Source: an uncultured bacterium (lineage in GTDB: Bacteria > Fidelibacterota > Marinisomatia > Marinisomatales > J089). Taken from it: a stretch of DNA of 64,000 bases. The DNA lies in the NCBI GenBank assembly GCA_964535735.1, contig CAZHTM010000001.1, positions 89,369 to 153,368 on the forward strand. The letters are read 5' to 3'. Of this stretch, positions 341 through 28,738 are shown in pieces. Numbering within the stretch: the stretch's first letter is position 1; each line of letters starts with the position of its first letter. The position numbers and the translations under genes are program-made. The notes below the pieces were generated by a model. That model was not told the DNA's origin. It worked only from the letters and a program-made list of their open reading frames with translations, and made no database searches.

Positions 341-1471
341 ATGTCCAGTATACAGCGGTTCATCCTGCCGTTCTTGGTTTCTACCATCATTCTCGGAGCT
401 GTTCCCGGTGACAGCCTAGTGTGGGTCGGGGTATATAAGTTCTATAATTATGAAACAGCGGAGGCCGTCGATATTTTAACCCGCGCCCGGCAGGAATTTC
501 CGGAAAACCCCACCGTTCATTTAACCTGGGCCGCGGCACGATGGCTTCATAGTCAGGCTCACGATCCTGTGGAGACCACCTATTCCATTCTGGAGGAATC
601 CCTGGATGACATAATTCCTGTGTACGAAGCTCTTGTAGCAAGTCAGCCTGACGACCCACACTATCGCCTTTACCTCGGGTCGGCTATTGGGCTTCAGGCT
701 CGGGTGGATTTGGGGCGAAAAGAATGGTTTTCCACTCTGGTGGATGCCTACCGCGGCTTTCGCATCATCCAGGAGGTTGCAAAAGCGAATCCGGATGAGG
801 TGGATGCCCAACTTCCGATTGGTATTGTAGAAACGTATGCATCTATGAGTGGATTTTTGGTTCGGTGGTCGGCCATGCTTTTTGGATTAAAACCCAACCT
901 GGATGAAGGACTCACCAAGATTGAAACCGCCGCAAATGAGGGCAATTTTTCCTGGATCGAAGCCAGCAGTATTAAATCCTTTCTGGATTTATGGGTGTTT
1001 CAGGATTTTCCTAATGCCTTGAAGCATAGTCGACGTCTAGCGTTGGAATTCCCCTATAATTTTTACTTTAATATCATGTATGTAGAAAGTTTAAGTCGCA
1101 CTGGTGATTTGGTTGGCGCTCGTGCACGTCTGAATTATTTGGCGGACAGGTACAGGGATTTAACTCCCGTACAGCAGCATTGGTACGGTGGTTATTTAGC
1201 TTATGAAGAAGGATTATTGGCCGCGATCAATGGCGATTGGGAAACGGCGTATCAAAAATCGTCCCAAGCCATTGAAACCTATGGCGCAGAACTGGACGTT
1301 ATTTTGGCCAATGCTTGGCTCTTAAAAGGCATGTGTCTGGATATCTCTAATAAACGGAAAGACGCCCAAAACGCCTACAGAGCATGTATAGACCTGGACA
1401 ATATGACCGCCGCGGTAAAACAAGCGGAACTTTATTTGAACCAACCGTTTACCACCGATAATTGGCAATAG
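341..1471 (+). CDS. hypothetical helical-repeat (TPR-like) protein with N-terminal hydrophobic segment
   Basis: 376-aa ORF with no competing frame. N-terminal segment FILPFLVSTIILGAV; the C-terminal part is helical-repeat-like. No recognisable catalytic motif. Confidence 0.5.
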   Translation: MSSIQRFILPFLVSTIILGAVPGDSLVWVGVYKFYNYETAEAVDILTRARQEFPENPTVHLTWAAARWLHSQAHDPVETTYSILEESLDDIIPVYEALVASQPDDPHYRLYLGSAIGLQARVDLGRKEWFSTLVDAYRGFRIIQEVAKANPDEVDAQLPIGIVETYASMSGFLVRWSAMLFGLKPNLDEGLTKIETAANEGNFSWIEASSIKSFLDLWVFQDFPNALKHSRRLALEFPYNFYFNIMYVESLSRTGDLVGARARLNYLADRYRDLTPVQQHWYGGYLAYEEGLLAAINGDWETAYQKSSQAIETYGAELDVILANAWLLKGMCLDISNKRKDAQNAYRACIDLDNMTAAVKQAELYLNQPFTTDNWQ

Positions 1472-1489
1472 TGCTTATCCCAACGAATC

Positions 1490-3397
1490 ATGACTAATCA
1501 ATACTCAGCGCCTTCGACAATGGTTTACCGACGCGTCACCCGGGAAGTTAGGGTAGGATCAGTGGGAATCGGTGGCCAAAATCCAGTCCGGATTCAATCC
1601 ATGACTACAACGGACACCATGGATACCGAGGCCACGGTGGCGCAATGTATCCGCATGATTGAGGCGGGGTGTGAACTTGTACGCATAACAGCTCCCAGTC
1701 AAAACGAAGCTCGTAACCTGGCGGAGATTCGCAAGGCGCTTCGAAAAAAAGGATACGACACCCCATTAATAGCGGATATCCATTTCACCCCGAAAGCAGC
1801 TGAGATTGCCGCGGAGATTGTGGAAAAAGTTCGGATCAATCCGGGAAATTATGCGGATCGGAAAAAATTTGAGAATCCCACCTATTCCGACGCGGAGTAC
1901 GACGAGGAACTGGATCGAATCCGGGAACGATTCGCACCTCTGGTGGAACGGTGCAAAACCAATGGTGTTGCTATGCGTATTGGGACGAATCATGGCTCAC
2001 TCTCAGACCGTATCATGGGACGTTATGGTGACACGCCTTTGGGCATGGTGGAATCAGCCTTGGAATTTGTGCGGATATGCCGAGACCTGAATTACCATGA
2101 TATTATTCTTTCGATGAAGGCCAGTAATCCGCTGGTGATGGTGGAGGCCAACCGTCTTTTAGTGGAGCGGATGGACGCGGAAGGCATGGACTATCCACTG
2201 CATTTGGGCGTTACGGAAGCGGGTGAAGGAGAAGACGGCCGTATAAAATCGGCGGTGGGGATCGGCACGCTGCTTATGGAAGGAATAGGTGATACAATTC
2301 GTGTTTCGTTGACCGAAGAACCGGAAGCGGAATTGCCTGTGGCCCGTTCTCTGGTTGAACTAGCTACCCGCCCTTTTTCTAAATCCAATGTTGAACAATC
2401 TACATTTCAAATTGCGAACACAATAACAGAACCCAATTCTACAGTAGCGGTGAATTCTATAGGAGGCGAAAACCCACCTCGGGTCATTGCATCTCTGGAT
2501 AAAACGGATCCTCTACAGCCAACGGCACTGGCCGCCATTGGATACCGGTATATCGCAACTCTGGATAAATGGTCCATCAGCGATCAGGCCGCCGATATGG
2601 TATATGTGGGTTCCCATAAACCGGAGTTTCCTTTACCCACAGGATTGACCTTATTATTCTATAAAGAATCTTCGATGGATGGCGTTACCCTTTATTCTTT
2701 GAGTGAACTGTCCCAGGTAGAAGAGAACCGGCCCGTTGCTTGCCTAGTTCAGGAAGAAGAGGTGCTAAACGGAATTCCCACTGAAATCTGTGATTTAAAA
2801 AACCTTATTTGGATATTTGACTATCCAACCTCCGATCCACTGACCGCTTGGCGCCGAATGTTTGAAGCGCTTCGATCCCAAGGGAATCGTCAACCGGTGA
2901 TCTTGCGTTATACGTCACAGCAACCGGAAGATCGCTGGCTTCTGGAAGCAGCGGTTCACATCGGCGGACTTTTTCTGGACGGACTGGGGGATGGAGTATG
3001 GCTGGATGTGTTTGAACCATCCCGATCGGTAGGTGTGGCATTTGGGATCCTTCAGGCGGTCCGGGCTCGCATATCGAAAACGGAGTATATATCCTGCCCC
3101 AGTTGTGGACGTACCCTGTTTGATCTTCAGGAAACCACGGCGCGGATTCGTTCTCGCACTTCACACCTAAAAGGCGTTAAAATTGGTATTATGGGGTGTA
3201 TCGTCAATGGTCCCGGAGAAATGGCCGATGCCGACTATGGCTATGTGGGCACCGGGCCTGGAAAAATTGCCCTGTACAAAGGGCAGGAAGTGATACACCG
3301 AAATATTTCCGCCGATCAAGCGGTCGATCAATTGATTGATTTGATCCAAACCCACGGGGATTGGGTGGACCCTCCTAATCCCGTAGAGGAAAGTTGA
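1490..3397 (+). CDS. ispG: 4-hydroxy-3-methylbut-2-enyl diphosphate synthase (IspG/GcpE), long form with inserted domain
   Basis: N-terminal TIM-barrel text GGQNPVRIQSMTTTDT...GCELVRIT. C-terminal 4Fe-4S module CPSCGRT...GCIVNGPGE. A ~270-aa insert between them, as in long-form IspG. Confidence 0.9.
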   Translation: MTNQYSAPSTMVYRRVTREVRVGSVGIGGQNPVRIQSMTTTDTMDTEATVAQCIRMIEAGCELVRITAPSQNEARNLAEIRKALRKKGYDTPLIADIHFTPKAAEIAAEIVEKVRINPGNYADRKKFENPTYSDAEYDEELDRIRERFAPLVERCKTNGVAMRIGTNHGSLSDRIMGRYGDTPLGMVESALEFVRICRDLNYHDIILSMKASNPLVMVEANRLLVERMDAEGMDYPLHLGVTEAGEGEDGRIKSAVGIGTLLMEGIGDTIRVSLTEEPEAELPVARSLVELATRPFSKSNVEQSTFQIANTITEPNSTVAVNSIGGENPPRVIASLDKTDPLQPTALAAIGYRYIATLDKWSISDQAADMVYVGSHKPEFPLPTGLTLLFYKESSMDGVTLYSLSELSQVEENRPVACLVQEEEVLNGIPTEICDLKNLIWIFDYPTSDPLTAWRRMFEALRSQGNRQPVILRYTSQQPEDRWLLEAAVHIGGLFLDGLGDGVWLDVFEPSRSVGVAFGILQAVRARISKTEYISCPSCGRTLFDLQETTARIRSRTSHLKGVKIGIMGCIVNGPGEMADADYGYVGTGPGKIALYKGQEVIHRNISADQAVDQLIDLIQTHGDWVDPPNPVEES

Positions 3398-15754: not shown

Positions 15755-18127
15755 ATGACTTTGACCCGATTTGTTTTAAAACGTCCCGTATTAATCGTGG
15801 GAATTGTTGGTCTGGTTACAGTGCTGTTTTTGCTTCAGATGAAGCATCTCACAATGGATCCGGATATCACCAGCGCCTTACCGAAAAAAATCCCGGCCAA
15901 ACGACTTTATGATCGCATGACGGAGATCTTTCCCACCAAGGAATTTATTTTTCTTGGCATTCAAGGAACGGACATTTTTTCCCCGCAACATTTGCAAGAT
16001 GTTTGGACGTTAACCCAATCGCTGGAACAAGAACCGGAAATTTACAAGGTGATGTCGCCGATGAATGTGAGCATTATTCGGGGAACCGAAGAGGGAATGA
16101 TTGTGGAAGACATTCTGGACGCGCCACCGAAATCAGCTCAGGATATCCAGCGATTTAAAAGTCGACTATTCAACAGTGATTTGGCGTTAGGCAATCTCAT
16201 TTCTCGGGATTCCACAATGTTTGGTATGATGCTGCTGTTAAAGAACACTACGGATGTGGATGACTTTGTTGAGCACTTTATACCCAAGGTGAAAGACTGG
16301 GATAATCAGATGGATCTGAACTTAATCCTGGCAGGAAAACCGGTCGTGAGTCATTATGTTGGTTTAGGAATGCAGCGGGATATGTCCACCTTTTTTATGG
16401 GTGGATTAGGCGTGATCTTTGTGTTATTGCTCATTATTTTCAAAAATCTTAGAGGAATTCTTTTACCCTTGAGTGTGGTTATCCTTTCGGTTATTTGGAC
16501 CATGGGAACCATGGCAATTTTGGGCGTGCCCATGTCGCACTCCACAGAAATCCTGCCCATATTAATTATGGCCATCGCGGTCGCGGATAGTATTCATATC
16601 GTGACCCATTATTATGGCAATGCCCGGAAAATTAAGGATAAGATTGAGCTCACCCGGGCGACCATGGCGGATATGATTTCTCCAGTGATCATGACGTCTT
16701 TGACGACCATGGCGGGATTCTTAGCCTTGGGTACAACCGGCGTCGAATCAATCATGACGCTGGGAATCTTTACATCAGTGGGCGTATTGTATGCCCTCCT
16801 GATCAGTCTCACATTCGTTCCAGCCTGGCTTCGTCTTTTGCCTATTCCGAAACGACTCCAGGCACAGAAAGATGCATCTACAACAGCGCGATTGATGATA
16901 AACTGGGGAAGGGTGTTAAACCAGAATAAACGAGTATTAATTCCGTTTATGATCGTGGTTCTGCTACTGAGTACCTGGGGCTTCAGTCGTCTGAAACATT
17001 CGTTCAGTTCTATCGGGAATTTCCCAGAAGATCACCCAGTCCGAATTGCTCATCAATTAATCAACGACCATTTTGCCGGCACCAATGCTTTTCAGGTCAT
17101 GGTGGAGGGGAAAGAACCGGGCCAAATCAAAGACCCACGGATTTTACGGGATATGGACGGTTTAAAATCGCTTGCCTTACGTCAACCCCATGTAGGATCG
17201 GTTCAATCCCTGGCGGACTTTATCAAACGTATTAACAAAGTACTCCATGAGGATGAGGAGGCATATAATGTCATTCCTAACGATCAGGAAGTGGTGAGCT
17301 ATACGGATTATATTGAGCAGGACGGGGGATGGACAGAGGTGATGGTTCAGGACACCATTCCAGGAAAAGAACTGGTTGCCCAATATCTCACGTTGTATGA
17401 AATGTCGGGGAAACCGGATGACATGGCCAATTTGGTGGACTATAAATACCAGCATGCCAAACTTACTATCCTCATGGATTCTGATGATCAAGCCACGCTA
17501 CGAACCATTGACCGGGTTTTGGATGGTTATATCGACACCCATTTCTCCGATGCGGATGTGGCCGTGACTGGGATGGCGAAGTTGATTTTGGTAGTGGATA
17601 ATTTGATTGTTTCCGGTCAGATCACCAGCATTCTTGTATCCCTATTCCTGGTCTGGTTATTGACCTCATTTATGTTTAAGTCGCCCATAGTGGGATTATT
17701 CAATGCGGTGCCTCTGTTCTTTTCCATTTTGTTAAACTTTATGATTATGGGACTTTCAGGGATTAGGGTTAACCTTGAAACGATGGTTACATCCAGTATT
17801 GCTATTGGAGTTGGAGTCGATTATGCCATTCATTTTATTTATCGATATCGGTTGAAACTGGAGCAGTCCGGTTCCTATGAACAGGCCGTGGTTGATACGA
17901 TGGAAGATTCGGGACTGGCTATTGCGTTTAACAGTTTTGTGGTGGCTGCTGGGTTTGCCGTCATTGCATTATCCCAATTTGTGGCCATCATGGAGATGGG
18001 TGTCCTCATCACCTTAACGATGGCGACTTCGGCCTTTGGTGCGTTGACGGTTTTACCGTTGGTTTTCGTGAATTACCAACCAAAAGCGCTGAAATTGAAA
18101 TCTTCCCAATCAAAGGAAACCAAGTAA
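15755..18127 (+). CDS. MMPL/RND-superfamily exporter (COG1033-type, two 6-TM halves)
   Basis: 790 aa with duplicated TM bundles, each preceded by a large periplasmic loop. Conserved AVADSIH and GVGVDYAIHF motifs. Starts 2 nt after the TetR stop. Confidence 0.85.
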   Translation: MTLTRFVLKRPVLIVGIVGLVTVLFLLQMKHLTMDPDITSALPKKIPAKRLYDRMTEIFPTKEFIFLGIQGTDIFSPQHLQDVWTLTQSLEQEPEIYKVMSPMNVSIIRGTEEGMIVEDILDAPPKSAQDIQRFKSRLFNSDLALGNLISRDSTMFGMMLLLKNTTDVDDFVEHFIPKVKDWDNQMDLNLILAGKPVVSHYVGLGMQRDMSTFFMGGLGVIFVLLLIIFKNLRGILLPLSVVILSVIWTMGTMAILGVPMSHSTEILPILIMAIAVADSIHIVTHYYGNARKIKDKIELTRATMADMISPVIMTSLTTMAGFLALGTTGVESIMTLGIFTSVGVLYALLISLTFVPAWLRLLPIPKRLQAQKDASTTARLMINWGRVLNQNKRVLIPFMIVVLLLSTWGFSRLKHSFSSIGNFPEDHPVRIAHQLINDHFAGTNAFQVMVEGKEPGQIKDPRILRDMDGLKSLALRQPHVGSVQSLADFIKRINKVLHEDEEAYNVIPNDQEVVSYTDYIEQDGGWTEVMVQDTIPGKELVAQYLTLYEMSGKPDDMANLVDYKYQHAKLTILMDSDDQATLRTIDRVLDGYIDTHFSDADVAVTGMAKLILVVDNLIVSGQITSILVSLFLVWLLTSFMFKSPIVGLFNAVPLFFSILLNFMIMGLSGIRVNLETMVTSSIAIGVGVDYAIHFIYRYRLKLEQSGSYEQAVVDTMEDSGLAIAFNSFVVAAGFAVIALSQFVAIMEMGVLITLTMATSAFGALTVLPLVFVNYQPKALKLKSSQSKETK

Positions 18128-18897
18128 TGCGATTCTTCACTGTGATTCTGGCTTTGTCCGGACTAATGATGGCTCAGGATTTAACGGGCTACGACATTAT
18201 GTATCGGGCGCTCAATAAAAAATCCTGGCAGGATATGAAAGCCGACCTTACCCTGACCATGGTGAATGCCCGTGGCGAGGAACGGGTGCGGCAGATCGCT
18301 TTTTATTCCTCGGATAACGCTCAGGGATTAAACCGGATGCTGATGCGATTTATGGCTCCTGCTGATGTGCGCGGGACAGGATTTCTCACCCTGGAAACCT
18401 CCTCCGGCGATGATGAGCGATATCTCTACCTTCCGGCGTTACGCCGGGTCAAAAAAATTGCCGCCAGTGGGAGCGGCGGAAACTTTATGTCCAGTGATTT
18501 TACGTATTATGATATCGGTAAACCAAAATTGGAGGATTGGACGTACACCCTGTTAGGAGAGGAAAAGGTTCAAGGCAAAACGTGCTATAAAATTGAGTGT
18601 CTTCCCATTGATAAACAGGTTTTGAATGATACCGGATATGGAAAAATTATTCGCTGGGTAGAAAAAGAACGTTTAAATACTGTTCAAAGCATCTATTATG
18701 ATAAAAGTCTCGAAGAGTGGAAGCATCTGACGGTCAATCAAACGTTGGAAATTAAAGACATCGATTTTGCTACAGATATGGTGATGGAGGATATTCAAAT
18801 CCAACATCGCAGTCAAATGGTGTTCTCTAACGTGGACGTTGACACCAATATTCCCGACACTTTTTTCAGTATCCGGTATTTGCAACGGGGTCGTTAG
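18127..18897 (+). CDS. outer-membrane lipoprotein-sorting (LolA-like) periplasmic protein
   Basis: Signal peptide plus text typical of the LolA-like partner of COG1033 exporters (YLYLPALRRVKKIAASG...FMSSDFTYYD). TAATG overlap with the exporter gene. Confidence 0.7.
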   Translation: MRFFTVILALSGLMMAQDLTGYDIMYRALNKKSWQDMKADLTLTMVNARGEERVRQIAFYSSDNAQGLNRMLMRFMAPADVRGTGFLTLETSSGDDERYLYLPALRRVKKIAASGSGGNFMSSDFTYYDIGKPKLEDWTYTLLGEEKVQGKTCYKIECLPIDKQVLNDTGYGKIIRWVEKERLNTVQSIYYDKSLEEWKHLTVNQTLEIKDIDFATDMVMEDIQIQHRSQMVFSNVDVDTNIPDTFFSIRYLQRGR

Positions 18898-20138
18898 TGA
18901 AATGGTGGCGTAAAACCGTTGGGCTCATTGTCCTGACCGTCATGGTGTCTGGTCAGTCCTCTTTTGGGGGATACATGAAGGGCTTGGGTTACTATAATCC
19001 TCATTCCGCGTCCTTTGCACGGTTAGGTACCCGATTCCAGGCCCGATGGAGCAATGATAATGGTCGTTCAGGATATTTTGCCGCCTTGAATTTCGAATCT
19101 GATTTTGCTACGATTGCGCAGGATTCTGCAAACCGGAGCCTGTCGACGCCTGATATGCACATAACGCCCGTGGAATTTTATATGGATTATCATTTCTCAT
19201 CGGCTGATTTACGAGTGGGGCAGCAATTCATTTTTTGGGGCGCCACTGATTGGGTGAATCCCACCGATGTTATCAATCCCTGGGATTTTGAGAATCTTTC
19301 CAGTGAAACGGAAGACTATCGAATTCCGGTCCTGGCCGGTTCTCTGATGATGTATTTGGGAAATTATACAATTCAGGCTGTCCTGGTGCCGGCGTTTACC
19401 GCCACAGTAATTCCCATACCACAAGGGACGCATTTGTACCGACCTCCGGTGGACAAAGATCATCTTCAGGGAGGAATCCGGATTCAGAGTTTCGTGGGTG
19501 CCACCGATGTATCGTTCGCCTATTTTTCTGGATTTAATCATTTACCGACATTCCGGTTTACGGGGATGGATTTTTCAACCGGTACGCCGTTCCCAACCTT
19601 TAAGGCCACTTATTCTCGTCAACAGATGGTGGGCGTGGACTTTGTGCGCACGGTAAATCAATTTGCCCTGAAAGGAGAATCCGCATGGCTCATTACACCC
19701 GATAAAAATGGGACCGATATTTTTGAGGACAACGCTTCGGTTGAAACCGTGTTGGGGATGGATTACATCGCGTCGGAAAATTTCAGCCTTAATTTCCAAT
19801 ATATTAACCATACCCTTCTAAAATATTCGCAATCGGAAGAACAAGACCGAATCGATCAAGCCGGTATGACCGGACATTTGATCCCTCCTGAGAAAATGAC
19901 TCATTCCTTCAGTGGCAGACTGGCCTGGGATCCATTTCCCTACATTACCAGTCAGGTAATCGGTGTGTATCATTTGAAAGACCGGGATTCCTTCCTGCTG
20001 GGTTTCTTATCATGGCAACCGCGGGACGCCGTCTCGGTGACGGTTGGGACGGTAATTTTTTCGGGATCGGAATCATCGGAATACGGCCGTCTTGATAATG
20101 AAGATTTGATATTTCTGGAAATTAAACAGTCCTTTTAA
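18897..20138 (+). CDS. probable outer-membrane beta-barrel protein (DUF1302-like partner)
   Basis: GTG start overlapping the upstream stop. Signal peptide, alternating beta-strand pattern, C-terminal ...LEIKQSF (terminal aromatic residue). Confidence 0.5.
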   Translation: MKWWRKTVGLIVLTVMVSGQSSFGGYMKGLGYYNPHSASFARLGTRFQARWSNDNGRSGYFAALNFESDFATIAQDSANRSLSTPDMHITPVEFYMDYHFSSADLRVGQQFIFWGATDWVNPTDVINPWDFENLSSETEDYRIPVLAGSLMMYLGNYTIQAVLVPAFTATVIPIPQGTHLYRPPVDKDHLQGGIRIQSFVGATDVSFAYFSGFNHLPTFRFTGMDFSTGTPFPTFKATYSRQQMVGVDFVRTVNQFALKGESAWLITPDKNGTDIFEDNASVETVLGMDYIASENFSLNFQYINHTLLKYSQSEEQDRIDQAGMTGHLIPPEKMTHSFSGRLAWDPFPYITSQVIGVYHLKDRDSFLLGFLSWQPRDAVSVTVGTVIFSGSESSEYGRLDNEDLIFLEIKQSF

Positions 20139-20218: not shown

Positions 20219-21088
20219 ATGAAGGTAGTGCATCGAATTTTAATCATTATTATGGCTCTAGTTGTCGCCGGAGCGATCGTTTGGTCACTGGATAATGCCG
20301 GGAGTTATTATCTGGCTTCAAGTTTGGAACGGCCTCACATGGAGGCGCATAAACTATGGAAACCGGGTGGGCTCTATGGTCACGGGTTAGGCATTATCGG
20401 ATCTTTGATGATCATGCTATTACTCACATACTCAGCACGAAAGCGAATTCGTCGATTTCGGCGCTGGGGTAGGCTGCCAAACTGGTTAAACTATCACATC
20501 TTTTTAGGTATTTCAGGACCATTACTGATTACCCTTCACACATCCTTCAAATTTGGCGGTTTGGTTTCTATTTCTTATTGGTCGATGATGGCGGTGATGC
20601 TGAGCGGGTTTATCGGGCGATATATTTACGTGAAAATTCCCCGGAAAATAAACGGTGAGGAAATGACCCGAAAAGAATTTGAAGCTCATAATGAAGAATT
20701 AAAGGCTCAGTTGGTACAACAATTTCAATTGTCCGCGAATCAGTTAGCCTTGGTTGAGAAAATCGGTGGGGTGGATAAAATAAAGGAACGTGGTCTCCTG
20801 GGAATATTCACTTTTTTCATTATGGATTTATTTAATTGGATTACTCTTAGACGAATTAGCCATCTTGTTTTTAAATCCGCTTCTGTTCCGAAAAAACAGC
20901 GAAAAGAATTTCATCGTTTATTAAGTCAGCGGGTCAAGAGTTCTCGACGGATTGCCTTTCTCCAGGCCGCACAAAAATTATTCCACTATTGGCATGTTAT
21001 TCATAAACCCTTTGCCTATACAATGATTGTGATCATGATTATTCACGTGGCAATGGCCATTACGCTTGGGTATACGTGGATTTTTTAA
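20219..21088 (+). CDS. integral membrane protein, predicted di-haem b (ferric-reductase/NOX-like transmembrane electron carrier)
   Basis: Two TM helices each carry an H-x13-H pair: YHIFLGISGPLLITLH (His codons 20495 and 20537) and IHKPFAYTMIVIMIIH (21002 and 21044). ATG 20219 is preferred over 20171. Confidence 0.5.
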   Translation: MKVVHRILIIIMALVVAGAIVWSLDNAGSYYLASSLERPHMEAHKLWKPGGLYGHGLGIIGSLMIMLLLTYSARKRIRRFRRWGRLPNWLNYHIFLGISGPLLITLHTSFKFGGLVSISYWSMMAVMLSGFIGRYIYVKIPRKINGEEMTRKEFEAHNEELKAQLVQQFQLSANQLALVEKIGGVDKIKERGLLGIFTFFIMDLFNWITLRRISHLVFKSASVPKKQRKEFHRLLSQRVKSSRRIAFLQAAQKLFHYWHVIHKPFAYTMIVIMIIHVAMAITLGYTWIF

Positions 21089-21089
21089 C

Positions 21090-22403
21090 ATGACCATGGA
21101 CAGTATCATCACCTACGGCATCGGTCTGATTATTATTTTGATATTTTTAGTTCCCTACATAATAAGCATGCGAAAAAATGAAAGACGCACGAGGGAACGG
21201 TTGGCGGAGAGTCAATCCAAAGGACAGGCAAAGCCGCTTCTGCAGCATCCCATTATCAATCAATCGGTGTGTATCGGCTGTGGGATTTGCGTCACCAGTT
21301 GCCCGGAAGGGGACGTCCTGGGTTTGATTAATGGAAAAGCCACCATTATTCATGGGAGTCATTGTGTCGGTCATGGACTTTGTGCGGAGAATTGTCCCAT
21401 CGGGGCGATCGAGGTTGGATTGGGCGACATTAGCGAACGTGAAGATATTCCCCGTCTTACAGATCAATTCGAAACCAACATTCCTGGAATTTATATCGTA
21501 GGTGAATTAAGTGGCATGGCATTGATCCGCAATGCCATAACCCACGGAGTGACAGCCATGAATGCCATCGCTGAATCGCTAAACGGGGCACCGGGTTTGG
21601 ATACATCCGTAGCGATTATTGGCGCCGGACCTTCCGGTCTGTCCGCTGCTTTAAAAGCCAAAGAATTGGGCATTGATTTTCAAATTCTAGATCAAGATAA
21701 ACCTGGAGGGACGATCCTACAATATCCCCGGAAAAAACTGACCTTGGTCCAGCGAGTGACCATACCCCTCTATGGTGATTTAACCCGCGGGGAATATACA
21801 AAGGAAGAATTGCTGGATATTTGGGAGTCGATGATTGAAAAGAATGCCATTGATTTGAAGACGGGACACAAACTGCTGGGTGTGGAACGAAATGATACCG
21901 GTTTTAAGATAAAAACATCCAAAGGGGAGTTGACCGCGGAGAAAGTGATCTTAGCCCTGGGACGGCGGGGTACACCGCGGAAATTGAATGTCCCTGGTGA
22001 AGATTTGGGCAAAGTGATGTATAAACTCATGGATGCGGAAACCTATAAGAACAATCACATTCTTGTAGTGGGAGGCGGCGATAGCGCCATCGAGGCAGCA
22101 ATTGGATTGGCCAGCCAAGCCGGGAACACGGTAACCATCTCGTATCGAAAAGAGCATTTCTTTCGTCTCAAAGCGCGAAATGAAAAAAATATTGAGCTCT
22201 TCATGAATGAGAAGAAATTGGATGTTATCTTCTCCTCGAATGTGAAGGAGATTACTCCGGATTCAGTCAGTGTAGCCATCGGCGAAGAGGTCAAAACGAT
22301 ACCCAATGATTACGTCTTTATTTTTGCAGGTGGTGAATTACCCTTCCCCTTATTGGATTCCATCGGGATTGATTTTGGCAAAAAAATCCGTGCGAAAGTG
22401 TGA
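21090..22403 (+). CDS. membrane-anchored 2x[4Fe-4S] ferredoxin-domain NAD(P)/FAD-dependent oxidoreductase
   Basis: N-terminal TM helix followed by RKNERRTRER. CIGCGICVTSCP and CVGHGLCAENCP. Rossmann motifs IIGAGPSGLSAA and VVGGGDSAIEAA. Starts 1 nt after the upstream stop. Confidence 0.75.
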   Translation: MTMDSIITYGIGLIIILIFLVPYIISMRKNERRTRERLAESQSKGQAKPLLQHPIINQSVCIGCGICVTSCPEGDVLGLINGKATIIHGSHCVGHGLCAENCPIGAIEVGLGDISEREDIPRLTDQFETNIPGIYIVGELSGMALIRNAITHGVTAMNAIAESLNGAPGLDTSVAIIGAGPSGLSAALKAKELGIDFQILDQDKPGGTILQYPRKKLTLVQRVTIPLYGDLTRGEYTKEELLDIWESMIEKNAIDLKTGHKLLGVERNDTGFKIKTSKGELTAEKVILALGRRGTPRKLNVPGEDLGKVMYKLMDAETYKNNHILVVGGGDSAIEAAIGLASQAGNTVTISYRKEHFFRLKARNEKNIELFMNEKKLDVIFSSNVKEITPDSVSVAIGEEVKTIPNDYVFIFAGGELPFPLLDSIGIDFGKKIRAKV

Positions 22404-22404
22404 G

Positions 22405-23817
22405 ATGATGAAAAAAACTCTGTTTTTCTGTCTCTGTTTATTCGTTCCCTGGCAAGTCTTTGGCCAGTTTAGTCCCGGTAAATTATCCCGGTATCATGCG
22501 GAGTTGGAGGGTACATCCAATTGTATTCAATGCCATGATATAGGGAAGAAGGAAGTCTCGGATGGTTGTCAAAAATGCCATACTCCTTTATTAAAACGGA
22601 TTAAGGAAAAGACAGGATATCATGCGGATAAGGCCGATGGATGTAAAGATTGCCATTCCGACCATAACGGAAGAGAATTTGAATTGGTGTATTGGCCTAA
22701 GAACATTAAAAACTTTAATCACAACGAAACCGGATACACACTTTCAGGGAAACACCGGGATGCGAAATGTCGTGATTGTCACCAGCCAAAATATATTCAG
22801 GATAAGGAATTAATAAAATGGGCGGGTGAACATCCTCAGTTTAATATCATGGATCGAACATTTTTAGGATTGGGGACGGAATGTCTGACCTGCCATGAGG
22901 ATGTGCACAGGGATGAAGTATCCGATGACTGCACAAAATGCCATAATACATTTGATTGGAAAAAAGCCGCCGACGAATTTGATCATAACCAGGCGCGTTT
23001 TCTGTTGACCGGTGCTCACGAAAAAGTGAAGTGTGGGAAATGCCATAAAATCCCTGACAATACAAAAAAAGTATGGCAATTAACAGGGATGGCCTTTGAT
23101 CAGTGCGGGCGGTGTCATGACGATGTACATAAGGGCAGTTTTGGATCAACCTGCGAACGGTGCCACACAACAGTGGATTGGAAAAAGAACCAGAAACGGT
23201 TCGATCACAACAGTACCAAGTATCCTCTAGTGGGAAAACATGTCAACGTAGCATGTCAGGATTGTCACACACCTCAATTGCAAGGAACCTTACCCAAATT
23301 TGATTTGTGTAGTCGCTGCCATGCTGACGAACATGATGGCCAGTTCCTGACACGAGCGGAAGGTGGTGAATGTTCTCAATGCCATACAGTGTATGCCTTT
23401 AAGCCCACGACCTTTACAATGTCCATGCATCAAGCCATTCGCTTTACATTGGAGGGCGCGCATCGTGCTGTACCCTGTATCGCCTGCCACAAACCGTACA
23501 TGAAAAAGGACGGAAATACAACAGTGAGATTTACGTGGACGAATCTCCAGTGCACTACCTGTCATAAAGATGAACACAGGAATCAATTTCAGGCGCATTT
23601 TAATAATTCCTGTGATAAATGTCATACAGTCATAACATTTTCACAGATTAACTTTGATCATCAGGCAACCACTTTTCCCTTGGATGGGAAACATCAAAAC
23701 GTCCCTTGCGAAAAATGTCACTTCAAAGAAACCGATTCAGTAGGAGAGTATATTCGATATTATCCAGTAGCCCATCGCTGTGTGGATTGTCACTCCATCA
23801 CCGATCAAATACAGTAA
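22405..23817 (+). CDS. multihaem c-type cytochrome, 17 CxxCH, built from c7-like trihaem units
   Basis: Signal peptide MMKKTLFFCLCLFVPWQVFG. 17 CxxCH counted in the translation. Repeated unit CxxCH-D-H...CxxCH...W...F-H....L-G-H....CxxCH. The ATG immediately follows the upstream TGA. Confidence 0.9.
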   Translation: MMKKTLFFCLCLFVPWQVFGQFSPGKLSRYHAELEGTSNCIQCHDIGKKEVSDGCQKCHTPLLKRIKEKTGYHADKADGCKDCHSDHNGREFELVYWPKNIKNFNHNETGYTLSGKHRDAKCRDCHQPKYIQDKELIKWAGEHPQFNIMDRTFLGLGTECLTCHEDVHRDEVSDDCTKCHNTFDWKKAADEFDHNQARFLLTGAHEKVKCGKCHKIPDNTKKVWQLTGMAFDQCGRCHDDVHKGSFGSTCERCHTTVDWKKNQKRFDHNSTKYPLVGKHVNVACQDCHTPQLQGTLPKFDLCSRCHADEHDGQFLTRAEGGECSQCHTVYAFKPTTFTMSMHQAIRFTLEGAHRAVPCIACHKPYMKKDGNTTVRFTWTNLQCTTCHKDEHRNQFQAHFNNSCDKCHTVITFSQINFDHQATTFPLDGKHQNVPCEKCHFKETDSVGEYIRYYPVAHRCVDCHSITDQIQ

Positions 23818-23833
23818 GGGATCAAAACCGACC

Positions 23834-26374
23834 GTGAACCGATATTTCATCCGGATTCTCGGAGTTCTCTCCCTGGGGATAATATTGTCTGTTGCGCTTG
23901 GACAACAATCCGCCATCGAAGTGAGTGGGTATGATTGTGGTGATTGTCATGGGGCTACCGGTTGGGATATCCTTGAATTCTCAGGTTTTTCCCACCAAAG
24001 CACAGGATTTCTATTAGAAGGCGCTCACGCGGCCCAACCATGTTATGCCTGCCATACGGGAAATACTTTGAGTGAGAAGCATCAATTTCAAGACGTGAAT
24101 ACAGTCTGTTCTTCCTGCCATCTGGATATCCACCAATCCACGTTGGGAGAGGATTGTACTTTTTGTCATGAATTCACCAGTTGGCAAGTAACCCAGAAGA
24201 CCTTTAACCACGAAACCACCCGGTTTCCTTTACAAGGCGCCCATCGGGGAATCGCCTGTGATCAATGCCATACGGAACATCCCATGACGCGCTTTGATTT
24301 TGTGGACACGGATTGTTTTGCCTGTCATCAAACAGATTATAATCGGGCGTTGAATCCTTCACATGTTTTGGCTCGTTTTAACCGGGATTGTCGGATCTGC
24401 CACACCGATCATCGGGCTGGGTGGCGGCCTTCCTTGTTTGATCATGCCGATACCGATTTTCTACTGACCGGAGTGCACATTGTTACGGAATGCGCTGAAT
24501 GTCATATAAATGGCCAATTTGAAGACACTCCTGAGTCCTGTCAGGCGGCCAATTGCCACTTCAACGATTTCCAAACCACCGATTCACCCAACCACATGAT
24601 CTATGGATATCCGGAGCAATATTGTGAAGAATGTCATGTAACCTTAGGATGGACGCCTTCTATTTACACGCATACCATTGATTATGCGTGCAGTTCTTGT
24701 CATATCCCCGATTTTCAGAATGCGCTTAATCCGATCCATAACGTTGAAAATGGATTTAGCACCAATTGTGAAGGATGTCATGTCGACGTAGAATCGTGGG
24801 CCGGGGCAACCTTCGATCATAGCAACGTTGAAATAGGTTCATGCGCCTCCTGCCATTTATCGAATTATAACGCCACCACCAGCCCTAACCATTCTGCTGC
24901 TGGATTTTCTACAAATTGTACATTATGTCATCAATCTACGTCCGATTGGCAACAGGTTCTTTTCGACCATGATCCTGCAATCACTATTCCGTGTTCGGAC
25001 TGCCATATGTCGGATTATAACGAGACCGCATCCAATCCTTCCATACCAAATCATGTGGATTCCGGTTTTTCCACCGATTGTACTCAGTGTCACACATCCA
25101 CATCTGATTGGGCTCAAATAAACTTCGACCATACGTCGGTGAGCATACCCTGCGCGGACTGTCATATGCCCGATTACAATAATTTACCTAACGCTACCTA
25201 TCCTAATGCGCCGAATCACGCTGAACTGGGTTTAACCACCGATTGTACGATCTGCCACAATTCCACGTCCGATTGGACCGACGTTACCTTCAGTCATACT
25301 TCGGTGGACAACCTTCCTTGCGCCGACTGTCATTTGAATCAGTATAATAATACCACTGATCCTGATCATGGCGCTTCCGGGTTTACCACCGACTGTACCC
25401 AGTGCCATACGTCAACATCGGATTGGACACAAGTGAACTTTGATCATAATCTGGTGACCGTTCCTTGCGCCGATTGCCACATGCCGGACTACAATAACAC
25501 CGCCAATTCGTCCAATCCCGATGTTCCCAATCATGTGGATTCAGGATTTACTACTGATTGCACACAATGCCATGTGTCCACATCGGACTGGTCGCAGGTT
25601 GATTTTAACCATGCCACGGTGACCGCGCCTTGCGCCGACTGTCACATGCCCGATTACAATAATTTACCGAACGCTACCTATCCCGACGCCCCGAATCATG
25701 CTGATTTAGGACTATCCACCGATTGTACGATCTGCCACAATTCCACGACTGACTGGACGGATGTTACTTTCACCCATACTTCAGTATCCGATATCCCTTG
25801 TGCTGATTGTCATTTAAATCAATATAACAACACAACCGACCCTAATCATTCCGCTTCCGGATTTTCCACGGATTGTACGCTTTGTCATAATTCCACATCC
25901 GACTGGTTAGATGTCACGTTTGATCATAGCAATATTTCACAACCCTGTGCTGATTGCCATTTGGAAGATTATAATTCAGCTATAAATCCGAATCACATTT
26001 CTCAGCAATACCCCACGACCTGTGAAGATTGTCACACAACTACTTCCTGGACTCCGGCCGACTTCGATCATGACACCCAGTATTTTCCCATATATTCTGG
26101 TAAGCATGATAATGAATGGTCCACATGCACAGCAGAATGCCATATCAACCCTTCTGAGTATTCCGTATTCTCCTGTGGATTAAATGGCGTATGCCATGAA
26201 CATGATCGGGCTAGCATGGACGATAAGCACCAGGGTGAGGTTAGTGGATATGTGTACGAAAGCAATGCCTGTTACAATTGTCACCCTGATGGGACAGAAG
26301 AAGGAGGGGATGGCGATGAAGGGGGTGATATCATCCGTGACTGGCGGGACCATATCAAGCGAATTCGGAAATAG
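23834..26374 (+). CDS. giant multihaem c-type cytochrome, 28 canonical CxxCH plus CX4CH and CX3CH variants; paired-CXXCH module array
   Basis: A GTG 23834 start gives signal-like VNRYFIRILGVLSLGIILSVALGQQ (the ORF-track ATG 23780 would overlap the upstream gene). Motifs were counted directly in the translation. Confidence 0.9.
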   Translation: MNRYFIRILGVLSLGIILSVALGQQSAIEVSGYDCGDCHGATGWDILEFSGFSHQSTGFLLEGAHAAQPCYACHTGNTLSEKHQFQDVNTVCSSCHLDIHQSTLGEDCTFCHEFTSWQVTQKTFNHETTRFPLQGAHRGIACDQCHTEHPMTRFDFVDTDCFACHQTDYNRALNPSHVLARFNRDCRICHTDHRAGWRPSLFDHADTDFLLTGVHIVTECAECHINGQFEDTPESCQAANCHFNDFQTTDSPNHMIYGYPEQYCEECHVTLGWTPSIYTHTIDYACSSCHIPDFQNALNPIHNVENGFSTNCEGCHVDVESWAGATFDHSNVEIGSCASCHLSNYNATTSPNHSAAGFSTNCTLCHQSTSDWQQVLFDHDPAITIPCSDCHMSDYNETASNPSIPNHVDSGFSTDCTQCHTSTSDWAQINFDHTSVSIPCADCHMPDYNNLPNATYPNAPNHAELGLTTDCTICHNSTSDWTDVTFSHTSVDNLPCADCHLNQYNNTTDPDHGASGFTTDCTQCHTSTSDWTQVNFDHNLVTVPCADCHMPDYNNTANSSNPDVPNHVDSGFTTDCTQCHVSTSDWSQVDFNHATVTAPCADCHMPDYNNLPNATYPDAPNHADLGLSTDCTICHNSTTDWTDVTFTHTSVSDIPCADCHLNQYNNTTDPNHSASGFSTDCTLCHNSTSDWLDVTFDHSNISQPCADCHLEDYNSAINPNHISQQYPTTCEDCHTTTSWTPADFDHDTQYFPIYSGKHDNEWSTCTAECHINPSEYSVFSCGLNGVCHEHDRASMDDKHQGEVSGYVYESNACYNCHPDGTEEGGDGDEGGDIIRDWRDHIKRIRK
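25151..25945 (+). repeat. in-frame tandem duplication inside the 28-haem gene (480-bp / 160-aa six-haem period)
   Basis: Modules A (25151-25318), B (25319-25465) and C (25466-25630), then A' (25631-25798) and B' (25799-25945). tgcgc.gactgtca.atgcccgattacaataattta recurs exactly 480 bp apart. Confidence 0.85.
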
Positions 26375-26377
26375 AGT

Positions 26378-27196
26378 ATGTCGTATTCAGCGATTATTCT
26401 CATGGTTGTATTGGCTGGAAGTCCTCAATTGGAATTGACCGATATACCTTGTTCTAAATGTCACACTCCCGATGCCTGGATTCCTCTAAATACCAATCGG
26501 ACATTTAATCATTCCAGGGATACACTATTTCCCCTTGAAGGTCGCCATCGTGATGCCGATTGTCTTCAATGCCATCCTGGTGAAACAACGGTAGAAATTC
26601 ATGCATTTGCCAAAGCCCGGCCCGAGTGTACAACCTGCCACATGGATATCCACATGAATCAACTCGGATCGGAATGTGATCGATGCCACACAACAGAAAC
26701 TTGGGACATGAGCCGGTGGACGAATAATCATAGTCATACAATTTTTACATTGGATGGGATGCACGCGTCCCTGGAATGCCGGGACTGTCATGGCATCAAT
26801 TTTGACCGTCTGGCAGGTCAACTAACGACAGATTGTTATATGTGCCATCAGCAAAGTTTTGTGGCTGCGATCAATGCTATCGATCTCGATCATCCTGAAA
26901 ATCAAAATTGCCGCTTATGTCACAATAGTCGTGCCTGGGTTCCTATTGATATGTCGCAGCACGATTCCCTATTTCCCATTTATTCAGGAGCACATAGAGG
27001 AAAGTGGACCACCTGTAAAGCTGAATGCCATATTGATCCGACCAATTACCAATTATTTTCTTGCGGCCTGAACGGTGTATGTCATGAACATGACAAGGAT
27101 AAAATGGACCAAAAGCACCTGGGGGAAGTAAGTAATTATAGTTACAATAGCTCCAGATGTTATGATTGTCATAGCAGCGGTGGAGGAGGCGATTAA
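26378..27196 (+). CDS. octahaem c-type cytochrome (8 CxxCH + CX3CH), periplasmic
   Basis: Signal-like N-terminus. 8 CxxCH counted. The C-terminal ~75 aa are paralogous to the C-terminus of the 28-haem protein. Starts 4 nt after the upstream stop. Confidence 0.9.
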   Translation: MSYSAIILMVVLAGSPQLELTDIPCSKCHTPDAWIPLNTNRTFNHSRDTLFPLEGRHRDADCLQCHPGETTVEIHAFAKARPECTTCHMDIHMNQLGSECDRCHTTETWDMSRWTNNHSHTIFTLDGMHASLECRDCHGINFDRLAGQLTTDCYMCHQQSFVAAINAIDLDHPENQNCRLCHNSRAWVPIDMSQHDSLFPIYSGAHRGKWTTCKAECHIDPTNYQLFSCGLNGVCHEHDKDKMDQKHLGEVSNYSYNSSRCYDCHSSGGGGD

Positions 27197-28738
27197 ATGA
27201 AATTTTTCAGTTTATGTGTAAGTCTACTAATCCTAAGCTCATTGGGTTGGTCTCAGGAACGGGTGGTAATCGACGTGAATGGCAAAATCACCTACTTAAC
27301 TACCGATCAAGTGTATTGCGATGTGGGCACTGAAGTGGGTGTGGAAGAAGGGGATACCCTTCATGTTACTCGGGGAGTCGACGAAATCGGATTGGTAGTG
27401 GTTACGTATATATCCCGAAAGTCCAGTGTTTGCGAGCCCTTGGTTCCTGCTGAGACTTTTCGATTGGGAGACCGGGTCCATCTGAAGAAAGTCAAACTGG
27501 TGACTATAGAAGAGACAACGGTAACACCGGCTCAAGTAAAGGAGGTCTCTCCCGTCAGTAAAAGACTGGGCCTAGCTCATACAGGCAATTTTTCGTTCCG
27601 CTATACCTATGGACAGTTTGCAGATAGTCTGTATAGTCAACGGAGTATCGCCTCTATCCAATACGGAATACACATATCCAATCCCATTGAAACCCAATTT
27701 TGGTTGTATGGGCGTTCCAATATACAGAACCGGGATTTCACACTTTACCAGGCACGGTGGGTTTTGGGGAAAGAGGACAGCCGCTTTAACGGTCAGCTCG
27801 GCAGAGTTTATTCTGCTTCTTTGTCCGGGATTGGAGCTACCGATGGTTTGTTGGTGAATTCGGCGTTATCGGAACGCCTATCAGCTGGTTTTTTAGTGGG
27901 GATGGAACCGGAACCCACCACACTTAAGTTTAATTCCAATGTCAAAAAAGGGGGTATTTTTACCCGGTTTGAGACGAAAGGGGAAAAACGATCTTTTGAG
28001 GGAAGTCTGGCTTTGGTGGGCCAATATGCCAGTGGGAAGGCTGATCGAGAATTCATATACGACCGTCTGCGATATCGAAATGGGCGACGACTGTATTTTA
28101 CCATGAACCAGACTATTGACTTATATCGAAATGGTCCTGTCGGCGGCCGGAAAGGGATTGAACTGGTGTCCAATCAACTATCACTTCGGGTGCGGGTCAC
28201 ATCATTTTTAAGTGTCTATACCCGACTCTCCAACCGGAAACAAATCCTTTACCAGGTTTCAAGTTCTTCGCTCCCGGATTCGCTGTTTGTAGATGAAACT
28301 CGGTCAGGCTGGTACAACGCCATTCGGTGGACGACAAAAGGGGACCGGTCGTTTCTCCTGGGAGCCAATTACCGGTATCAATCAGTAGGTGGTAGTAACT
28401 CAATCTATGCGTTTTTCACCTATCGCGGACCCTATTCCCGCGGGCGATGGAATTTTGATTATACCGGCAGCTACATTCACAATTTGCTGATTACTGGTAC
28501 ACGCAATCAATTCGGCTTCTCCCGGACTATAGGGAAGACGGGAACGTTCTTTACCGAATACGAGCTCTATGTGTATGGATATGGCAATATCATGACAGAT
28601 TATGTTCAACATAATATTACGTCCACCTATTCATGGAGATTGCAGTCCCGGATGGTAATAACCGCATCATTGGATGCGACGATTGATAAGGATTATTATT
28701 TCTATTATTTGTATTTCGGATTTAATTACCGGTTTTAG
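27197..28738 (+). CDS. outer-membrane beta-barrel protein with N-terminal soluble domain (porin-like partner of the cytochromes)
   Basis: The ATG abuts the upstream TAA. Signal peptide MKFFSLCVSLLILSSLGWSQ. Long amphipathic beta-strand pattern rich in Y/G/R/N/S. C-terminus YLYFGFNYRF (OMP-type terminal Phe). Confidence 0.6.
   Translation: MKFFSLCVSLLILSSLGWSQERVVIDVNGKITYLTTDQVYCDVGTEVGVEEGDTLHVTRGVDEIGLVVVTYISRKSSVCEPLVPAETFRLGDRVHLKKVKLVTIEETTVTPAQVKEVSPVSKRLGLAHTGNFSFRYTYGQFADSLYSQRSIASIQYGIHISNPIETQFWLYGRSNIQNRDFTLYQARWVLGKEDSRFNGQLGRVYSASLSGIGATDGLLVNSALSERLSAGFLVGMEPEPTTLKFNSNVKKGGIFTRFETKGEKRSFEGSLALVGQYASGKADREFIYDRLRYRNGRRLYFTMNQTIDLYRNGPVGGRKGIELVSNQLSLRVRVTSFLSVYTRLSNRKQILYQVSSSSLPDSLFVDETRSGWYNAIRWTTKGDRSFLLGANYRYQSVGGSNSIYAFFTYRGPYSRGRWNFDYTGSYIHNLLITGTRNQFGFSRTIGKTGTFFTEYELYVYGYGNIMTDYVQHNITSTYSWRLQSRMVITASLDATIDKDYYFYYLYFGFNYRF

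Follow-up and report, generated by a model that had tools for sequence, protein, structure and literature searches.

Modular 'wire' cytochromes are already known from Geobacter, where GSU1996 (Protein Data Bank (PDB) code 3OV0; NCBIfam model TIGR04257) is a tandem polymer of units with three CxxCH motifs each, presumably acting as a linear haem wire, and its domains show His-Met ligation on haem IV. The small c7 cytochromes (PpcA; Pfam family PF14522) hold three haems in about 70 residues; their haem core is c3-like without haem II, and in their axial layout haem I is preceded by F-x-H-x2-H, with the third distal ligand ahead of the middle CxxCH. At the cell envelope, precedents of another kind are the porin-cytochrome conduits, as the Pcc systems of Geobacter (OmbB-OmaB-OmcB) and MtrCAB of Shewanella (PMC4245776, PMC7399161). 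The present work concerns three neighbouring genes for multihaem cytochromes, here called A, B and C, which occupy positions 22405-27196 of a 64,000-nucleotide stretch of contig CAZHTM010000001.1, from an uncultured bacterium of the Fidelibacterota; this whole stretch is referred to as the window.

The three genes are co-directional on the plus strand, at the coordinates given by a preliminary description made from the letters of the window without database searches. A recount agrees with its numbers of CxxCH motifs, 17 in A, 28 in B and 8 in C, and no other open reading frame (ORF) of the window carries more than one. The reading favoured here, with a probability of about 0.65, is that A, B and C are modular multihaem cytochromes, formed by duplication, insertion and loss of haem modules, and that they belong to a gene cluster for a trans-envelope conduit.

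The tri-haem unit and its polymer in A

One c7-like block of three haems had been described four times in A, at least once in B and once in C. A relaxed-pattern search, together with a haem-by-haem layout, finds the same recurrence, at haems 5-7, 8-10, 11-13 and 14-16 of A and at haems 3-5 of both B and C. The motif as first written stands as an overall unit, but two of its spacings were each one residue short: the first part reads CxxCH-x-D-x-H instead of CxxCH-(D/E)-x-H, and the second CxxCH-x4-[W/F] instead of x3-W, with F replacing W in two copies of A. The F-(D/N)-H position deviates in two copies, being S-M-H in one copy of A and N-N-H in that of C. The two-haem part of the unit (CxxCH..W..F[DNS]H..LxGxH..CxxCH) is additionally found at haems 3-4 of A, haems 1-2 and 7-8 of B and haems 1-2 of C.

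When the six units of the window are aligned and the Cys/His columns are ignored, the sum-of-pairs score is 701, compared with -475 +/- 50 in 2000 within-row shuffles (z = 23), and D, [W/F], [F/Y], L and G are kept in all six. In a wider alignment, which comprises 59 units of A and its relatives and of B and C, precisely 12 columns are invariant, namely the three CxxCH motifs and three free His (columns H7, H18 and H55), besides near-invariant L, G and D. Judged by these alignments, the tri-haem module common to A, B and C is homologous.

Regarding the limits of the unit, the register first written is out of step with the c7 domain in the Pfam and PDB alignments. These place the domain start at F-D-H...G-x-H-x4-CxxCH, the best PF14522 stretch in A covering residues 118-181, so that the natural unit consists of haem c of the previous copy followed by haems a and b. 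In this c7 register, the full unit reads F-D-H-x4-[FY]-x-L-x-G-x-H-x4-CxxCH, x18-38, CxxCH-x-D-x-H, x7-12, CxxCH-x4-[WF]; it measures about 75 residues, with a range of 71-88, and has 18-38 residues between the first and second motifs and 11-16 between the second and third.

Protein A begins with an NrfH/c3-like part holding haems 1-3, followed by four full tri-haem units and a truncated two-haem unit (Table 1). It is a head-to-tail tri-haem polymer of four full units and one truncated one, while B and C have one canonical unit each. In this, A is similar to GSU1996, as both are tandem polymers of 70-88-residue units with three CxxCH each at the same motif spacing, and A would likewise be a linear haem wire. 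Among 55 A-family proteins, 17 non-motif His are conserved for the 17 haems and no Met is, so that all haems of A are predicted to be bis-His ligated. The preliminary description expected elongated haem chains from all three proteins, which is plausible; the AlphaFold2 (AF2) model of A has a mean predicted local distance difference test (pLDDT) of 79 and a predicted template modelling score (pTM) of 0.44, and contains no haems.

The N-terminal part of A gives an NrfH-like match at residues 31-86 (TIGR03153, 30.7 bits, below cutoff). It is possible that the predicted signal peptide of A remains uncleaved and anchors the protein in the membrane, as happens in NrfH and CymA. Directly after this hydrophobic segment stands an invariant Q-F-S-P-G-x-L-x3-H (residues 21-31, window 22465-22500).

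A protein database search gave 3584 relatives of A, the closest being 75-81% identical and coming from metagenome-assembled genomes of Fidelibacterota, Marinimicrobia and the FCB group, and a contig scan with an alignment of A orthologues counted no fewer than 561 species-level genomes that encode one. Eighty-five loci gave 70 distinct A-family proteins, of which 25 have 17 CxxCH motifs, 37 have 20, five have 23 and only three another number. In relatives of 540-650 residues, the additional length is seen as whole three-haem blocks inserted into the protein. The alignments and counts support the tri-haem unit as the evolutionary unit of A, whose relatives are longer or shorter by whole units.

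Relation to c7, GSU1996 and paired-CXXCH proteins

It is rather unlikely that the unit is a genuine c7-type tri-haem domain, and that A, as well as parts of B and C, are GSU1996-type nanowire cytochromes by ancestry and fold, in spite of a likeness that is considerable at first sight. All three proteins pass the gathering threshold of PF14522, Cytochrome_C7 (24.8 bits), with 82.1 bits for A, 97.3 for B and 35.0 for C. The profile of the unit ranks GSU1996 (3ov0) first in the PDB, with 55.6 bits (E = 4.8e-14) and four c7 domains in register, while 3h4n (c7; E = 0.015) and 1rwj (domain C of GSU1996) align with it nearly end to end at E ~0.01. Moreover, the unit shares with c7 its three haems in about 70 residues and the two His upstream of the first CxxCH.

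Much of this signal is retained in scrambled controls. When the residues other than Cys and His are shuffled between fixed Cys/His, A and B still pass PF14522, with 64.1 and 73.6 bits, and C falls to 22.6; with the Cys/His positions alone left in place, 65-78% of the score is still reached, and the real sequences lie 12-24 bits above. In the same way, a control profile of the unit, whose non-Cys/His columns were permuted within each inter-haem segment, still ranks 3ov0 first with 50.5 bits (E = 1.6e-12), against 55.6 for the real one. As the scrambled controls retain these scores, about 65-90% of the c7/GSU1996 similarity appears to be explained by haem-motif spacing and composition.

Of the two profiles by which the preliminary description proposed to recognise the domain, Cytochrome_C7 was recovered as said above, but TIGR04257 (nanowire_3heme, cutoff 40 bits) reaches 17.3 bits in A and has no match in B and C. 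The ligand layout also differs from that of both reference families. The unit has F-D-H-x10-H before its first CxxCH, so its N-terminal His are 10 residues apart and not 2, and its third free His follows the middle motif (CxxCH-x-D-x-H) instead of preceding it. The His-Met haem IV of GSU1996 has no counterpart, since the unit has three invariant free His and no conserved Met, all its haems being apparently bis-His ligated. A, B and C are, in addition, 4 to 12 times larger than c7 and modular, and neither c7 nor 3ov0 was retrieved by Foldseek from the haem-free model of A. Consequently, the c7/GSU1996 reading of the preliminary description stands as to the Pfam match and the rank of 3ov0 and falls as to the controls, the nanowire profile and the ligands: the unit is spaced like a c7-type domain and would work like one, yet it cannot be shown to belong to either family, c7 or GSU1996, and two defining features are absent from the sequences.

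An NrfA/HAO-type assignment, the outcome that the preliminary description had named as fatal to its proposal, did not occur. PF02335 (NrfA type, cutoff 24.1) gives 15.9 bits for B and no match for A and C, and this fold was rejected, as the profiles place the proteins in the class III / c7 / c3 group. For the annotation of multihaem proteins in general, the controls call for caution, because matches to Cytochrome_C7 in Pfam and to GSU1996 in the PDB can arise from Cys/His spacing alone.

The basic block could also be smaller, a two-haem 'paired CXXCH' element (PF09699) around which single haems were gained and lost, with the tri-haem unit as a derived form without special relation to c7. This element corresponds to the CxxCH-x4-W..F-D-H..L-x-G-x-H..CxxCH half of the unit and is carried by many relatives, in which the PF09699 match is precomputed. 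In A, PF09699 (Paired_CXXCH_1, cutoff 20.6) passes with 23.3 bits at residues 209-241, compared with 15.1 in scrambled A. Moreover, the element stands alone at haems 1-2 of B and of C, its CxxCH-x4-W..FDH half is retained in the di-haem repeats of B described below, and relatives of B commonly carry a second tri-haem variant (CxxCH-xxDY..PxH..CxxCH..W..FDH..FPLTG.H..CxxCH). Nevertheless, it covers only two of the three haems and is not reported at threshold for B or C, the A family changes its size in steps of three haems and not of two, and none of the 59 units lacks the third haem or its x-D-x-H, which makes a two-haem origin rather unlikely.

Further modules and atypical haem motifs in B and C

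The claim that all three proteins share one block was right in so far as the unit is present in each, and overstated for B and C: B consists mostly of di-haem repeats, and both proteins end in a separate C-terminal domain. An origin by shuffling of a common module, as first proposed, is likewise correct in spirit, with at least three module types in play.

From the N-terminus, B is formed by a lone haem, the canonical unit (haems 2-4), two variant units that begin with CxxCH-xx-D-[YF]...NP-x-H, nine di-haem repeats and a C-terminal tri-haem domain, and only 3 of its approximately 31 haems lie within the full motif. The di-haem repeats retain the CxxCH-x4-W..FDH part of the unit without the third haem. 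A 160-residue super-repeat is found among them, as residues 458-617 and 618-777 are 60% identical in amino acids and 62% in nucleotides. Tandem Repeats Finder reported no repeats in 22300-27300, the repeats of B being only about 62% identical at the DNA level, and the profile of the di-haem repeat has no solved relative in the PDB (best E = 0.03). The GC skew of the 24001-26000 bin is -0.155, the only strongly negative 2-kb bin of the window, the others being mostly positive (-0.012 to +0.14), and this bin is where the di-haem repeats of B, rich in Thr, Ser, Asp and Asn, are located. The translation of B probably starts at the GTG at 23834 (MNRYFIR...), 17 nucleotides past the stop codon of A and with AAGGGA 12 nucleotides upstream.

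Protein C has a lone haem, the canonical unit, one variant unit and a C-terminal domain as in B. Its residues 6-182 align almost gap-free with residues 34-208 of B, and its last 86 residues are 60% identical, so that B is essentially C with about 545 inserted residues. By this comparison of the two sequences, B and C are collinear paralogues, having in common an N-terminal stretch of seven haems (one unit plus a variant) and a distinct C-terminal tri-haem domain. The latter has the pattern FPIYSGxH..W..C-x3-CH..FSC-x5-CHEH..MD.KH..Y.Y.S..CYxCH; it matches 458 representative clusters, and no Pfam match covers it in C. Elsewhere, this FPIYSG domain occurs in tandem (proteins P0185, P0186 and P0187), with 12 matched stretches in a protein of 907 residues and 25 in one of 1885, and in P0187 a tandem array with 7 matched stretches comes after an N-terminus like that of C.

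Both proteins contain haem motifs of atypical spacing, three in B and two in C (Table 1). The CTAECH/CKAECH and CGLNGVCH sites are plain CxxCH in relatives from other phyla: the (3,5) pair of spacings is found in orthologues of the Fidelibacterota type (17 of C and 10 of B), and (2,2) in 14 other B orthologues. CQAANCH stands in the place of the CxxCH of a B variant unit, and is placed solely by the within-protein parallel with the unit containing CFACH. The numbers of 28 and 8 are thus lower bounds, and with the atypical motifs counted the true ones are probably 31 haems in B and 10 in C. Whether CX5CH binds haem covalently is a question raised by the Pcc study (PMC4245776), which reports atypical CX3-5CH motifs in outer-membrane cytochromes, similar to those of B and C.

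The families of B and C behave differently from that of A. Between species, B varies continuously from 15 to 54 CxxCH and from 472 to about 1300 residues (loci L001-L085), the closest relative, L006, having 30 instead of the 28 seen here, while the C family is fixed at 8-9. A scan of genome contigs with C alone found no relatives. Relative to the known wire cytochromes, what appears new is the ligand layout, together with the failure of the nanowire model and the combination with two further modules. Thus, a distinct tri-haem module, predicted to be all bis-His, and two more modules would be used combinatorially in a family annotated just as 'cytochrome c3 family' or 'hypothetical'.

Table 1. 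Genes, haem modules and atypical haem motifs of the cluster, in positions of the window (aa, amino acids; nt, nucleotides).
Feature	Position	Strand	Remarks
Predicted di-haem b membrane protein	20219..21088	+	longest ORF from 20171; two conserved H-x13-H pairs
FeS flavoprotein	21066..22403	+	membrane-anchored 2x[4Fe-4S] ferredoxin domain + FAD/NAD(P) oxidoreductase (Pyr_redox_3, YpdA/TrxR-like)
Gene A	22405-23817	+	470 aa, 17 CxxCH, signal peptide, cytochrome c
Four tandem tri-haem units of A	22702..23640	+	residues 100-187, 188-261, 262-335, 336-412; 12 invariant Cys/His columns each
Truncated last unit of A	23641..23814	+	haems 16-17
Gene B	23780-26374	+	longest ORF; 864 aa, 28 CxxCH plus CX4CH, CX3CH, CX5CH
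Single full tri-haem unit of B	23978..24190	+	c7 register, residues 67-137, haems 2-4; in the register first written, residues 110-164, nt 24107-24271
B CQAANCH	24539-24559	+	CX4CH
Nine tandem di-haem repeats of B	24689..26035	+	haems 10-27, residues 304-752; CxxCH-x2-[DN][YF]N..NPxH..T[DN]CxxCH-xSTSDW..F[DSNT]H
C-terminal tri-haem domain of B	26048..26284	+	FPIYSGKH..W..CTAECH..FSCGLNGVCHEH..CYNCH
B CTAECH	26126-26143	+	CX3CH
B CGLNGVCH	26174-26197	+	CX5CH
Gene C	26378-27196	+	272 aa, 8 CxxCH plus CX3CH, CX5CH
Single full tri-haem unit of C	26495..26710	+	c7 register, residues 40-111, haems 2-4
C-terminal tri-haem domain of C	26936..27172	+	60% identical to that of B, 54% without Cys/His
C CKAECH	27014-27031	+	CX3CH
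C CGLNGVCH	27062-27085	+	CX5CH
513-aa putative outer-membrane beta-barrel	27197..28738	+	signal peptide, no alpha-helical transmembrane segment; start abuts the C stop

Neighbouring genes and the proposed trans-envelope conduit

The module finding is solid but modest, and more interest attaches to the cluster that surrounds the three cytochromes. Its genes keep the order membrane protein, FeS flavoprotein, A, B, C and 513-aa protein in more than 30 species of Fidelibacterota, and a rearranged cluster, often without a separate C, is found in Calditrichota, KSB1, Zixibacteria, Latescibacterota, Ignavibacteria, Bacteroidota, Acidobacteriota, Verrucomicrobiota and Gemmatimonadota. No relevant description of such a cluster was found in the Marinimicrobia/Fidelibacterota literature searched.

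The membrane protein encoded upstream of A has five or six hydrophobic segments, in which the pairs H109/H123 and H278/H292 are conserved. With two H-x13-H pairs, it shows the classic layout by which a membrane protein holds two b haems, and it is predicted to carry electrons across the membrane as a di-haem b protein. Among described proteins, it resembles the haem-b carriers of the DUF4405, MsrQ and PepSY-like kinds and, by logic, the ferric reductase domains of NOX type, which also span the membrane several times, have four conserved His as two H-x13-H pairs and work with a flavoprotein partner; for DUF4405 proteins, haem b binding has been demonstrated experimentally (PMC11334425). In the present case, however, the DUF4405 match is sub-cutoff, and the flavoprotein is a separate, FeS-containing polypeptide.

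The gene of this FeS flavoprotein always stands beside that of the membrane protein and overlaps or abuts its cluster neighbours. The YpdA/TrxR-like match of the flavoprotein is of 161 bits, below the equivalog cutoff. Its N-terminal anchor is followed by RKNERRTRER, which by the positive-inside rule puts the remainder in the cytoplasm. Through this flavoprotein, electrons may enter independently of quinones.

On the other side, the 513-aa protein has an N-terminal domain of about 100 residues with two conserved Cys, followed by a barrel-like remainder, and 14% of its residues are aromatic. Its C-terminal Y-x-Y-x-G-[LF]-x-Y-R-[FLI] is conserved, the last residue being F, L or I in 54 of 56 orthologues, and all 28 of its 28 relatives are annotated 'hypothetical'. 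The gene is found beside the cytochrome genes in dozens of species of several phyla, usually directly after C, or after B where C is absent.

A trans-envelope conduit is proposed because of the analogy with the Pcc and Mtr porin-cytochrome clusters, in which a gene for about 8-10 haems also stands beside that of a large signal-peptide protein with barrel features and a larger cytochrome is added. In the proposed chain, the cytoplasm-facing FeS flavoprotein would take electrons from NAD(P)H or a similar donor, and the di-haem b protein would carry them over the inner membrane. Then A, with its 17 haems, would bridge the periplasm, C, with about 10, would be seated in the 513-aa barrel like MtrA and OmaB, and B, with 15-54 haems and a length that differs by species, would be the distal wire. 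Every one of these roles is proposed from gene content and conservation. The cluster differs from Pcc and Mtr in that its barrel has no detectable homology to known families, in its additional 17-haem protein and in its inner-membrane partner, which is predicted to be a di-haem b protein with an FeS flavoprotein and not a quinol oxidase of the CymA, ImcH or CbcL type. Regarding B, the best NCBIfam match is to the DmsE/MtrA decahaem family (TIGR03508, cutoff 192), with only 75.4 bits (A reaches 31.2 and C has none), and its resemblance to MtrA/DmsE is functional, not one of membership.

A number of results weigh against the modular conduit reading, besides the nanowire profile and the scrambled controls already given. 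No lipobox was seen in A, B or C, and hence the localisation of B is a guess. For the 513-aa protein, searches of Pfam, NCBIfam and the PDB gave no match, whether the query was its single sequence or a profile of 27 sequences, and homology to MtrB/OmbB is not detectable; its beta-amphipathic 9-mers number 17, compared with 11.3 +/- 2.9 in shuffles, an excess of only about two standard deviations. The DUF4405 match of the membrane protein has 17.6 bits, below the Pfam cutoff of 26.7. As to structure, the AF2 model of C (pLDDT 59) is too poor for a fold search, and Foldseek found no significant match in the PDB for the model of A, the best being STC (1m1r, E = 0.9), haem-free models of haem-dense proteins being poor queries.

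The cluster could instead be a periplasmic system, serving as an electron store (capacitor) or as the reductase chain of a soluble substrate, the 513-aa protein being an unrelated outer-membrane or soluble protein. The missing lipoprotein signals and the lack of homology between that protein and the known electron-conduit porins would agree with this, and extracellular electron transfer is unmentioned in the published metabolic reconstructions of Marinimicrobia that were searched. Yet the barrel gene accompanies the cytochromes across several phyla and its start abuts the stop of C, the set of a cytochrome of about 8-10 haems, a barrel and a large cytochrome fits the logic of Pcc and Mtr (PMC4245776), and the highly variable length of B is accommodated more easily outside a periplasm of fixed width, all of which makes a purely periplasmic system improbable. 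Finally, convergence or chance in haem-dense proteins, suggested by the Pfam and PDB matches that Cys/His spacing alone can trigger, is effectively refuted as the source of the recurring motif, because z = 23 was obtained on columns other than Cys and His, D, W/F, F/Y, L and G are kept in the six units of the window and H7, H18, H55, L, G and D over 59 units from many species, and whole units are inserted in relatives.

Within the modular conduit reading, a further-reaching proposal, drawn by analogy and unlikely to hold in all its parts, is that the six genes encode an undescribed, possibly quinone-independent conduit through the whole envelope. This would be made of an NAD(P)H- or ferredoxin-oxidising flavoprotein, a NOX-like di-haem b protein, the wire A, C in a new type of barrel and an extracellular B whose reach is tuned by module repeats, and it would be widespread in the FCB superphylum and Acidobacteriota. 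The strictly conserved cluster itself is suggestive of electron transfer, either extracellular or across the envelope, in Fidelibacterota (Marinimicrobia, SAR406) as well as in many FCB and Acidobacteriota lineages. If this is true, the abundant marine Marinimicrobia would gain an unrecognised capacity for extracellular electron transfer, which, if confirmed, would matter for the cycling of iron, manganese and humic substances in waters and sediments poor in oxygen.

Other genes of the window surround the six. Directly upstream (15755-20138) lie genes for an MMPL/RND transporter, a LolA-like protein and a DUF1302 protein; the triad is also present in locus L007 and part of it in L006, and MMPL and LolA-like genes stand downstream of the cluster in one Ignavibacteria locus (L067). 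They were dropped as parts of the system, being adjacent only in these closest relatives (L006 and L007) and in L067. Downstream of the cluster lie rplM-rpsI-rpsB-tsf-pyrH. Tetratricopeptide repeat (TPR) and GcpE (IspG) genes (window 341-3397) are found upstream of the cluster, and likewise in locus L001, from a 41%-identical Marinimicrobia relative, and this shared position suggests long-range synteny and an ordinary chromosomal location.

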